This document shows positions 27,455-28,487 of a stretch of DNA of 64,000 nt, piece after piece (position 1 is the first letter of the stretch; every line of letters begins with the position of its first letter). The stretch covers positions 25,777 to 89,776 of the forward strand of contig CAZDPS010000001.1 in the NCBI GenBank assembly GCA_964507615.1, read 5' to 3'. The position numbers and the translations under genes were made by a program. This DNA is from an uncultured Candidatus Saccharibacteria bacterium (lineage in GTDB: Bacteria > Patescibacteriota > Minisyncoccia > Phycocordibacterales > DATDWN01). The notes beneath the pieces are model-generated. The model saw only the letters and a program-made list of their open reading frames with translations, searched no databases and was not told the DNA's origin.

Positions 27455-27496
27455 CACTTGTTTGTTAATAAATATTTCAGTTGATATAATCTACTT

Positions 27497-27925
27497 ATGA
27501 AAAAACTAGAAATTGGAGGTACTTACAAACATTACAAAGGAACATTGAGCCTATTCAAAATCTAAACGCAAATAATAAATCAGTTCTTGGCTTGTCTGCA
27601 AAAATATCCAAATTTCGGCTGCAAATTATTCACTCCTCCTCAATCATATCTCGATATGCCTCGTCGGATTTCATAATTTTCGCTCGAAATTTGAACATTT
27701 TATCTAGACATTAGATTTTTCATAGGCTCCGTTACAGTTTTGTTTGAAGCACTACACAGTGAGACACTAGAGCCAATGGTGATTTATATTCATCTAGAAG
27801 ATGGGGGCACCTGGGCTAGACCTAGAAAGATGTTTCTTGAGAGCACAATGGTAAATGGCAAAAAAACAGAAAGATTCAAGAAAATAAACCAGAAATTGGT
27901 CATAAAGCCAAAGAAAAAACAGTAA
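27497..27925 (+). pseudogene. DUF1653-family gene interrupted by a 183-bp insertion
   Basis: N-terminal piece MKKLEIGGTYKHYKGT and C-terminal piece VTVLFEALHSETLEPMVIYIHLEDGGTWARPRKMFLE... match the two halves of DUF1653; removing 27547-27729 joins them in frame. Confidence 0.75.
27547..27729. mobile_element. MITE-like non-autonomous element (183 bp)
   Basis: 19-bp terminal inverted repeats gagcctattcaaaatctaa / ttagatttttcataggctc (17/19 match); no ORF; introduces an in-frame TAA into DUF1653. Confidence 0.6.
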
Positions 27926-27947: not shown

Positions 27948-27976
27948 TTGATTTACCTAGTGTTTTATACAATAAT
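27948..27976 (+). promoter_or_regulatory. Sigma70-like promoter of island 5
   Basis: TTGATT, 17 nt, AATAAT, about 23 nt upstream of the SD. Confidence 0.45.
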
Positions 27977-27999
27977 CAAGAAAGAAGGAGGTTGTGAGG

Positions 28000-28212
28000 A
28001 TGGAAACCATCTGTGAGACTTCAGGACATCTGTCAGGGTCAACGGTCAGAGAACACCACCCGACATGCACGTGCAAGACCTGCCTGTGCCCGTGTTTCAA
28101 ACACCGAGAAGAGTTAGCAGAAAGACAGGAGAACCACAGACTTGAGCTCGAGCGAATGTACCGCGACCGCACTCGGGGTCGTCGCGACTATTCCGGTCCG
28201 ATTACAGACTAG
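28000..28212 (+). CDS. Cys/His-rich small protein (70 aa), GC-rich island 5
   Basis: METICETSGH...HHPTCTCKTCLCPCFKH... then charged helix; SD aggagg 8 nt before ATG; hairpin acggccgttccg/cgggacggccgt downstream. Confidence 0.6.
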   Translation: METICETSGHLSGSTVREHHPTCTCKTCLCPCFKHREELAERQENHRLELERMYRDRTRGRRDYSGPITD

Positions 28213-28284
28213 AGCTGAAACGTGCAGTTCTTCTAAATTCCTACGGCCGTTCCGATCTTCGGGACGGCCGTAAAATTTTAATGT

Positions 28285-28427
28285 TTGACCTGGTAGTAGA
28301 TTTTGGCATAGCTCTCTCGAGCGGGCGAAGCCCAATGCCAAATTCACTACCGGGTTGACAAAAACATGCATATTATGATATGATTGTTTTATCGAAGTTC
28401 GCCCACCCGGGCGGGCCATTTTTTTAC
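28285..28427 (+). other. GC-rich structured non-coding tail of island 5 (possible sRNA)
   Basis: Nested inverted repeats cctggtagt/actaccggg and tttggcat/atgccaaa; TTGACC-17-ATAGCT and TTGACA-18-TATGAT boxes; plus-strand hairpin gcccaccc.gggcgggc plus T7. Confidence 0.3.
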
Positions 28428-28487
28428 CCAAATATAGGGTAGAATAAAGAAGTAAAAATTTATAAACAATTATTAGCTAAAATAACT

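Follow-up and report, generated by a model that had tools for sequence, protein, structure and literature searches.

Between pilB and nusA the window (the whole stretch of DNA that was analysed, 64,000 nucleotides) contains a DUF1653 gene in two parts, with a segment of 183 bp between them. The host assembly (G000) comprises 789 kb in 37 contigs with about 37% G+C. The gene begins with an ATG at 27497, its reading frame opens with MKKLEIGGTYKHYKGT, and the insertion point lies 50 nt inside it. An in-frame TAA at 27563-27565 ends translation after 22 codons. On the far side of the segment the frame continues from 27730 (...VTVLFEALHSET...) to a stop at 27923-27925. The parts of the gene are the following:

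27462..27490, plus strand: promoter-like sequence ahead of DUF1653, with TTGTTA and a TG-extended TATAAT spaced by 17 nt
27497..27546, plus strand: 5' portion of DUF1653, comprising codons 1-16 and 2 further nt (MKKLEIGGTYKHYKGT), matching residues 1-16 of intact orthologs
27497..27565, plus strand: truncated ORF as present, 22 codons, of which the last six (LSLFKI) and the TAA come from the inserted segment
27730..27925, plus strand: 3' portion of DUF1653, comprising 1 nt, codons 18-81 and the stop

Deletion of 27547-27729 in silico gives ...GGA ACA TTC GTT ACA... and a continuous ORF of 81 codons. The joined 81-aa protein matches PF07866 (DUF1653) over profile positions 1-62 of 62 with 70.2 bits (E 2e-19), well above the curated cut-off of 23.5 bits, and the 3' fragment by itself still gives E 7.6e-14. 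The first-pass annotation had described two halves of a DUF1653-type protein whose frame is restored by precise removal of the segment, and both statements are borne out: the restored length is that of 18 relatives. The gene is uninterrupted and free of the element in 18/18 relatives found, and the intact orthologs have the length of this gene minus exactly 183 bp. These relatives are MAGs labelled Paceibacterota, Paceibacteria, Nomurabacteria or Patescibacteria. They include G028 and G012, the closest species in the scan set, with 89-91% amino-acid identity in DUF1653; in DNA, the nearest sampled species are 85-91% identical at this locus.

The promoter-like site has 10/12 hexamer matches in addition to the TG, and the same sequence precedes the intact genes of G028 and G012. 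Since the site ends 6 nt upstream of the ATG, the DUF1653 mRNA probably has no leader or almost none. Downstream, between DUF1653 and nusA, lies a GC-rich region (27948-28430) with no counterpart in G028. A 72-aa Cys/His-rich ORF at 27994-28212 had no NCBIfam match. The interval between DUF1653 and nusA measures only about 90 nt in G028; hence, this slot has received a second insertion that is specific to the present genome.

Three substitutions of this genome, K17F, K19T and C22F, lie no more than six codons from the junction. Most relatives have Lys at position 17, whereas position 19 is Lys or Arg in 16/16 aligned sequences and position 22 is variable. Outside the junction region the protein is close to the G012 version. 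Pairwise dN/dS against G028 and G012 is 0.08-0.10 at a dS of 0.6-0.7, values to which 81 codons lend little power. Such low ratios suggest that purifying selection acted on the gene during most of the period since the species split and, consequently, that the break came late on this scale. Considering also that both halves are open, either the break occurred late in the lineage or the gene has somehow remained in use. A DUF1653 gene is present in only 12 of the 63 genomes of the family, and because of this patchy occurrence it is presumably dispensable here. We infer that the gene is inactivated. Metagenome contigs scanned for exact matches to the gene segment adjoining the junction yielded 0 hits, and an exact-protein look-up of the 61-aa DUF1653 fragment returned no match. 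For annotation purposes, the two DUF1653 fragments should be joined as one disrupted gene and the 183 bp marked as a mobile element.

The inserted segment and its family

The features of the inserted segment are listed below:

27547..27729, plus strand: non-autonomous hairpin MITE with IS5-family-type ends, scoring 186.3 bits against the R1 covariance model over positions 1-183
27547..27565, plus strand: left terminal inverted repeat GAGCCTATTCAAAATCTAA, with one mismatch to the family consensus GAGCCTGTTCAAAATCTAA
27711..27729, plus strand: right terminal inverted repeat TTAGATTTTTCATAGGCTC, pairing with the left arm
27601..27701, no strand assigned: inner palindromic arms (27601-27636 and 27666-27701), 36 nt each, around a conserved centre

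In agreement with the first-pass annotation, the 19-nt terminal arms GAGCCTATTCAAAATCTAA and TTAGATTTTTCATAGGCTC are complementary at 17 of 19 positions, and the element carries an in-frame TAA. This TAA, at 27563-27565, is in fact the first of three in-frame stops (TAA, TAA, TGA). The whole segment folds as a hairpin over its full length, with z = -4.7 for the plus strand and -7.5 for the minus strand, and only 4 of its 54 stem pairs are non-Watson-Crick. The family consensus of the centre reads CATATC(T/A)NGATATG. Because the hairpin spans the whole length and belongs to a family of many copies, the inverted repeat is not a chance match. ORFs within the element are only 22-40 codons long and are not conserved between the two copies of this genome.

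The net gain at DUF1653 equals the element length exactly and is a multiple of three. A length of exactly 61 codons had been singled out as curious; it turns out to be simply the modal length of the family. Nor is it a sign of in-frame tolerance, because of the three in-frame stops. The element is flanked by ATT and CGT, which contain neither a target-site duplication nor a TWA site, so that the earlier statement that no duplication is obvious can be kept. A hidden duplication with shifted boundaries (2-bp TT, or TTA two nt downstream) was considered and rejected: the frame is then lost or the protein becomes shorter than in 18/18 orthologs. The flanks are not easily derived from a TTA/TAA pair by point mutation. 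From the missing 3-bp duplication and the unusual target (TT|C in place of TWA) we infer an atypical or imprecisely repaired insertion.

The R1 covariance model was built from 16 copies, and up to 6 candidates were scored per genome. Full-length copies were found with it in 87 of 401 genomes and 60 of 223 genera of the order, while BLAST detected copies in 19 of the 63 genomes of the family. Presence is patchy within a single genus (about 11 of 41 genomes), and the closest relatives G012 and G028 have no copies. Copy number per genome ranges from 0 to about 30 and reaches about 20-30 in a few genomes; in four genomes, each about 1 Mb in size, a terminal-repeat scan yielded 57, 51, 35 and 34 ends. 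Copies are 176-186 bp long with a mode at about 183 bp, and the full-length matches of the model measure 179-186 nt.

Forty-six copies were taken with their flanks for counts of duplications, stem pairs and gene context, and the terminal inverted repeats are conserved over all of them (consensus GAGCCTGTTCAAAATCTAA). An exact 3-bp duplication is present in 17 of the 46, either TTA (10) or TAA (7) and never another triplet, and four more copies have inverted flank pairs (TTA/TAA or TGA/TCA). Copies without a duplication have on average 4.9 stem mismatches of 54, compared with 2.7 in those with one (Mann-Whitney p = 0.001), which is what decay with age predicts.

Among the 46 copies the one in DUF1653 is the only one that splits a gene. 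When the flanks of all 46 were joined, the other ORF candidates proved to be upstream extensions or antisense frames and were discarded. At four loci (L055, L073, L060 and L066) a neighbouring gene of 260-499 codons terminates at the duplicated TAA or TTA, and insertion at stop codons seems to be common for this 183-bp (GAGCC) family. A stop-free frame of 251 codons runs through the copy at L058 1080-1835 (G071:C9); the encoded sequence would be of low complexity and seems spurious. Short elements (75-80 bp) that share the terminal repeats occur at G046:C14:1486-1561 (L044), G043:C25:256-335 (L045) and G089:C1:2426-2500, and apparently arose from the 183-bp element by internal deletion. G221 additionally has longer variants, with 270-400 bp between matching ends.

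In the 16-copy alignment 92.4% of the stem cells are paired. Changes on both sides were found in 34 of 49 pairs, compared with 17.8 +/- 2.4 in shuffled alignments and 11-18 when the partners were slid against each other. Nearly all of these stem changes lead from one Watson-Crick pair to another, transversions included, and one-sided (wobble) changes are rare. Over the 46 copies, G-U occurs in 48 and A-C in 52 of 2484 cells. Since G-U is no commoner than A-C, the pattern is not that of selection on a single RNA strand. This explanation had to be given up despite a folding bias: in 44 of 46 copies the predicted fold of the minus-strand RNA is more stable than that of the plus strand by about 11 kcal/mol; this difference stems from regions outside the consensus stem. 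The covariation rather points to upkeep of the palindrome at the DNA level. Selection on the hairpin or on a cruciform may be responsible, or alternatively template-switch correction, a process known to act on near-palindromes. The family also provides a well-defined example for studying how the stems of palindromic MITEs are preserved by covariation that is restricted to Watson-Crick pairs.

Ends, transposase and the second copy

The terminal-repeat scan also revealed an IS of 859 bp in a sister genus (G057:C14:2-860) with the ends GAGCCTGTTCACAATCTTT. Its orfA matches PF13340 (DUF4096; E 1.5e-20) and its orfB PF01609/PF13586 (DDE_Tnp_1; PF01609 E 5.7e-32). The two ORFs overlap at a run of eight A, which suggests that they are joined by a programmed frameshift. 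All six readable IS ends in G057 are flanked by TAA or TTA, the triplets that also border fresh MITE copies. Of the 19 positions of the MITE consensus GAGCCTGTTCAAAATCTAA, 16 are identical in the IS end GAGCCTGTTCACAATCTTT, and the first 16 nt of the left repeat of the DUF1653 copy differ from the G057 IS end (GAGCCTGTTCACAATC) at two. A relative with 68% identity to this IS, with the end GAGCCTGTTCATAATC, is present in G076. The sequence shared by MITE and IS is confined to the first 16-17 or so terminal nucleotides; the MITE interior is a separate conserved palindrome.

As the first-pass annotation had stated, the window contains no transposase, and the same holds for the 789-kb assembly, in which tblastn gave nothing below E 0.46 and PF01609 had no match. 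A transposase of the cognate type was detected in 3 of the 401 genomes of the order, and all three lack the MITE. This dissociation of MITE and transposase across the order is striking. MAGs often lose multi-copy IS, and since they can do so, the absence of the transposase is weak evidence rather than proof.

DDE_Tnp_1 genes are found in G313, G089 and G221, the three genomes richest in the MITE. Those that could be delimited, in G221, were considered as cognate transposases and rejected, their ends (ACTTTGAATTACGAAAC) being unrelated. They belong to a different IS5-type IS of about 990 bp with the ends ACTTTGAATTACGAAAC (L106 1117-2103 and L111 1101-2103 in G221). This IS has a MITE of its own of about 337 bp, which in G089 (L107 2513-2849) contains a nested element of the 183-bp (GAGCC) family. 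A viral or phage vector was likewise considered: the one exact terminal-repeat match in IMG/VR falls within a coding gene and is not recognised as an element by the model, and BLAST of the element against phage records found nothing.

A search of the full genome for other copies, as had been suggested, yielded one more, at G000:C7:32025-32204 (L003 3025-3205), which is 80% identical to the DUF1653 copy. Weaker matches of the model on the opposite strand are the palindrome matching itself, so there are two copies in this genome and not four. They are dispersed at non-orthologous sites, and relatives have empty sites for both. The second copy occupies the interval from trpS to aspS, where it is inserted into the terminator-hairpin loop of a T-box-like leader (CGCCCCTGCGAATT...[element]...AATTCGGAGGGGCTTTTTT). 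At this position the aspS leaders of G012, G028 and G003 have no insert, and comparison with G003 indicates a 4-5-bp duplication, AAAT(G).

L048-L051 and L003 2859-3009, no strand given: aspS T-box-like leaders, sub-threshold match to RF00230

The aspS leader matches the T-box model RF00230 with 49.9 bits (E 4.7e-10), compared with a gathering score of 93, and the uninterrupted orthologous leaders are below this threshold as well. It contains the core AGGGUGGCACCGCG, a terminator stem of 13 bp and then a T run. With scores so far under the gathering threshold, the aspS T-box-like leaders of this genus would be missed in these CPR genomes by standard annotation. A self-folding insert should leave the terminator formable, and the second copy may therefore be tolerated. 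The extra 180 nt must delay the 3' arm of the terminator, so that the timing of the riboswitch could change. At gathering thresholds, Rfam identified only tRNAs in the window and at the second locus. A permissive Rfam search of the second copy gave the sub-threshold T-box and miRNA-like hairpins at chance level.

Interpretation of the interruption

It is highly probable (roughly 85%) that 27547-27729 is one copy of a family of hairpin MITEs of about 183 bp with IS5-family-type ends, and that this copy breaks the DUF1653 gene. The element is non-coding, and its family is spread across an order of Paceibacteria-type CPR bacteria. Its 19-nt terminal repeats are of the kind that an IS5-family DDE transposase, the putative mobiliser, would recognise. 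The copy inserted 50 nt into DUF1653, and translation from the ATG now stops after 22 codons; the gene is presumably inactivated. As the assembly encodes no IS5-type transposase, the copy is now probably stranded. The simplest reading is that an atypical or imprecisely repaired insertion killed a dispensable gene.

The first-pass annotation had proposed a non-autonomous, MITE-like element, a view that the second local copy, the occurrence in 87 of 401 genomes and the parent-type IS with matching ends in a sister genus corroborate. It had also called the insertion recent. This applies in relation to the split from the nearest sampled species (85-91% DNA identity) and not beyond that scale, given the 4 non-Watson-Crick pairs of 54 and an identity of only 80% to the other copy.

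An alternative that we regard as unlikely is that the host has recruited the mobile family as a structural signal, for instance as an mRNA-stabilising hairpin at the 3' end, as a terminator helper or as a palindrome bound by a protein. Conservation would then reflect selection at the level of the host rather than ongoing transposition, and the DUF1653 copy would be an accidental, harmful member. The conservation of length and stem across 60 genera with strong covariation would fit such a role, as would the small palindrome CATATCTAGATATG in the conserved centre; the family has no Rfam match, however, and its occurrence is patchy even in one genus (about 11 of 41 genomes), with copies at non-orthologous sites. 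Many copies lie on or just after the stop codons of long genes (L055, L073, L060, L066), but this placement follows from the TAA/TTA target alone. The better folding of the minus-strand RNA in 44 of 46 copies counts in favour of recruitment, whereas the wobble pairs, which are rare and symmetric between strands, fit poorly with selection on one RNA strand. A cognate transposase in only 3 of 401 genomes and the copy within a terminator loop, where a self-folding insert is harmless, are further points in favour of recruitment; a copy number ranging from 0 to about 30, and closest relatives (G012 and G028) without any copy, argue against it.

It is very improbable that the interruption is bridged and the DUF1653 protein still made, whether by excision of the hairpin from the mRNA and rejoining of the ends or by a ribosome hop, as in phage T4 gene 60 or the mitochondrial 'byp' elements of Magnusiomyces. 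Removal of exactly 183 nt (61 codons) without a duplication would be scarless and in frame, but 183 nt is the ordinary length of the family, of which the other 45 copies examined are intergenic. The stop seven codons past the junction and a strong hairpin that brings the flanks together would suit bridging. The only matching codon pair, however, ACA at 27542-27544 and at 27734-27736, would cost three residues including the conserved Lys/Arg. A hop of 183 nt would exceed every known bypass severalfold, and no bacterial system is known to rejoin mRNA after the cleavage of such a hairpin. A reading as an intron or ribozyme was rejected, as no group I/II intron or self-cleaving ribozyme matched in the window at gathering thresholds. 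Both gene halves are intact with a dN/dS of 0.08-0.10, but the replacement of two conserved lysines beside the junction (K17F, K19T) looks like lost constraint. If bridging did occur, members of this MITE family could behave like introns or bypass elements after insertion into a gene.

The chance of an assembly or binning artefact, that is, a mis-threaded repeat or a minority variant in a population carrying the intact gene, is very small: the assembly is a MAG of 37 contigs with an estimated contamination of 6.3%, but its only other copy is 80% identical and leaves no repeat to confuse the assembler, both junctions lie deep within a contig of 103 kb, and the flanking codons bear changes of their own relative to the orthologs.

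Returning to the MITE insertion as the preferred reading, the call of a pseudogene is itself routine, and the main points of note are the breadth of the family, the covariation restricted to Watson-Crick pairs and the missing transposase. CPR/Patescibacteria have tiny genomes, which are regarded as poor in mobile DNA. Here, one structured MITE family occurs in roughly one in five of the genomes sampled from an order, and in genomes of 1 Mb it reaches bursts of 20-30 copies; a literature search found no previously described MITE from CPR bacteria. The R1 model is suitable for masking these repeats, which break MAG assemblies and can be mistaken for structured RNA genes or parts of riboswitches.

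Comparison with known systems

The IS427-group elements of Paracoccus are 830-865 bp long, contain two ORFs with a frameshift and mostly make 2-bp duplications (PMC3281130). The G057 IS resembles this group in size, in its two-frame layout and in the frameshift motif of an A run, whereas the family described here has 3-bp duplications of TTA or TAA instead of mostly 2 bp. According to the ISfinder description, the ends of the IS1031 group begin with GAG and the target duplication is a 3-bp T-N-A. On the basis of this general description, the GAG ends and the 3-bp T-W-A duplication of that group resemble those found here. TWA is also the target of the related eukaryotic PIF/Harbinger-Tourist pair. 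In comparison with IS5-derived MITEs, the present element differs in not being a deletion derivative of the IS and in having a CPR bacterium as its host.

Hairpin-forming, MITE-like repeats are known as Correia elements in Neisseria, ERIC/IRU in enterobacteria, RUP in Streptococcus pneumoniae and Nezha in cyanobacteria. Like the present family, these are 100-200 bp long with terminal inverted repeats, short AT-rich duplications and folding over the whole length; they are likewise mostly intergenic, often near gene ends, and in several cases the host genome also has no cognate transposase. There is no sequence relation between them and the family here, which moreover spans a whole order and not a genus. 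Correia elements reach hundreds of copies, compared with 0-30 per genome in our case. For repeats of the Correia/ERIC/RUP/Nezha type effects on transcripts are documented, for example RNase III processing and new promoters.

The Rickettsia palindromic elements (RPE) are also palindromic, have a length divisible by three and lie inside an ORF. They stay open and are translated within the protein, whereas the element in DUF1653 has TAA, TAA and TGA in frame. Due to these three stops it truncates the protein, unlike RPE. The family is an IS5-family-type MITE, of a kind that is already known and is found here in CPR bacteria; the break of the gene is in itself an ordinary event, and the family is widespread in a little-studied group.
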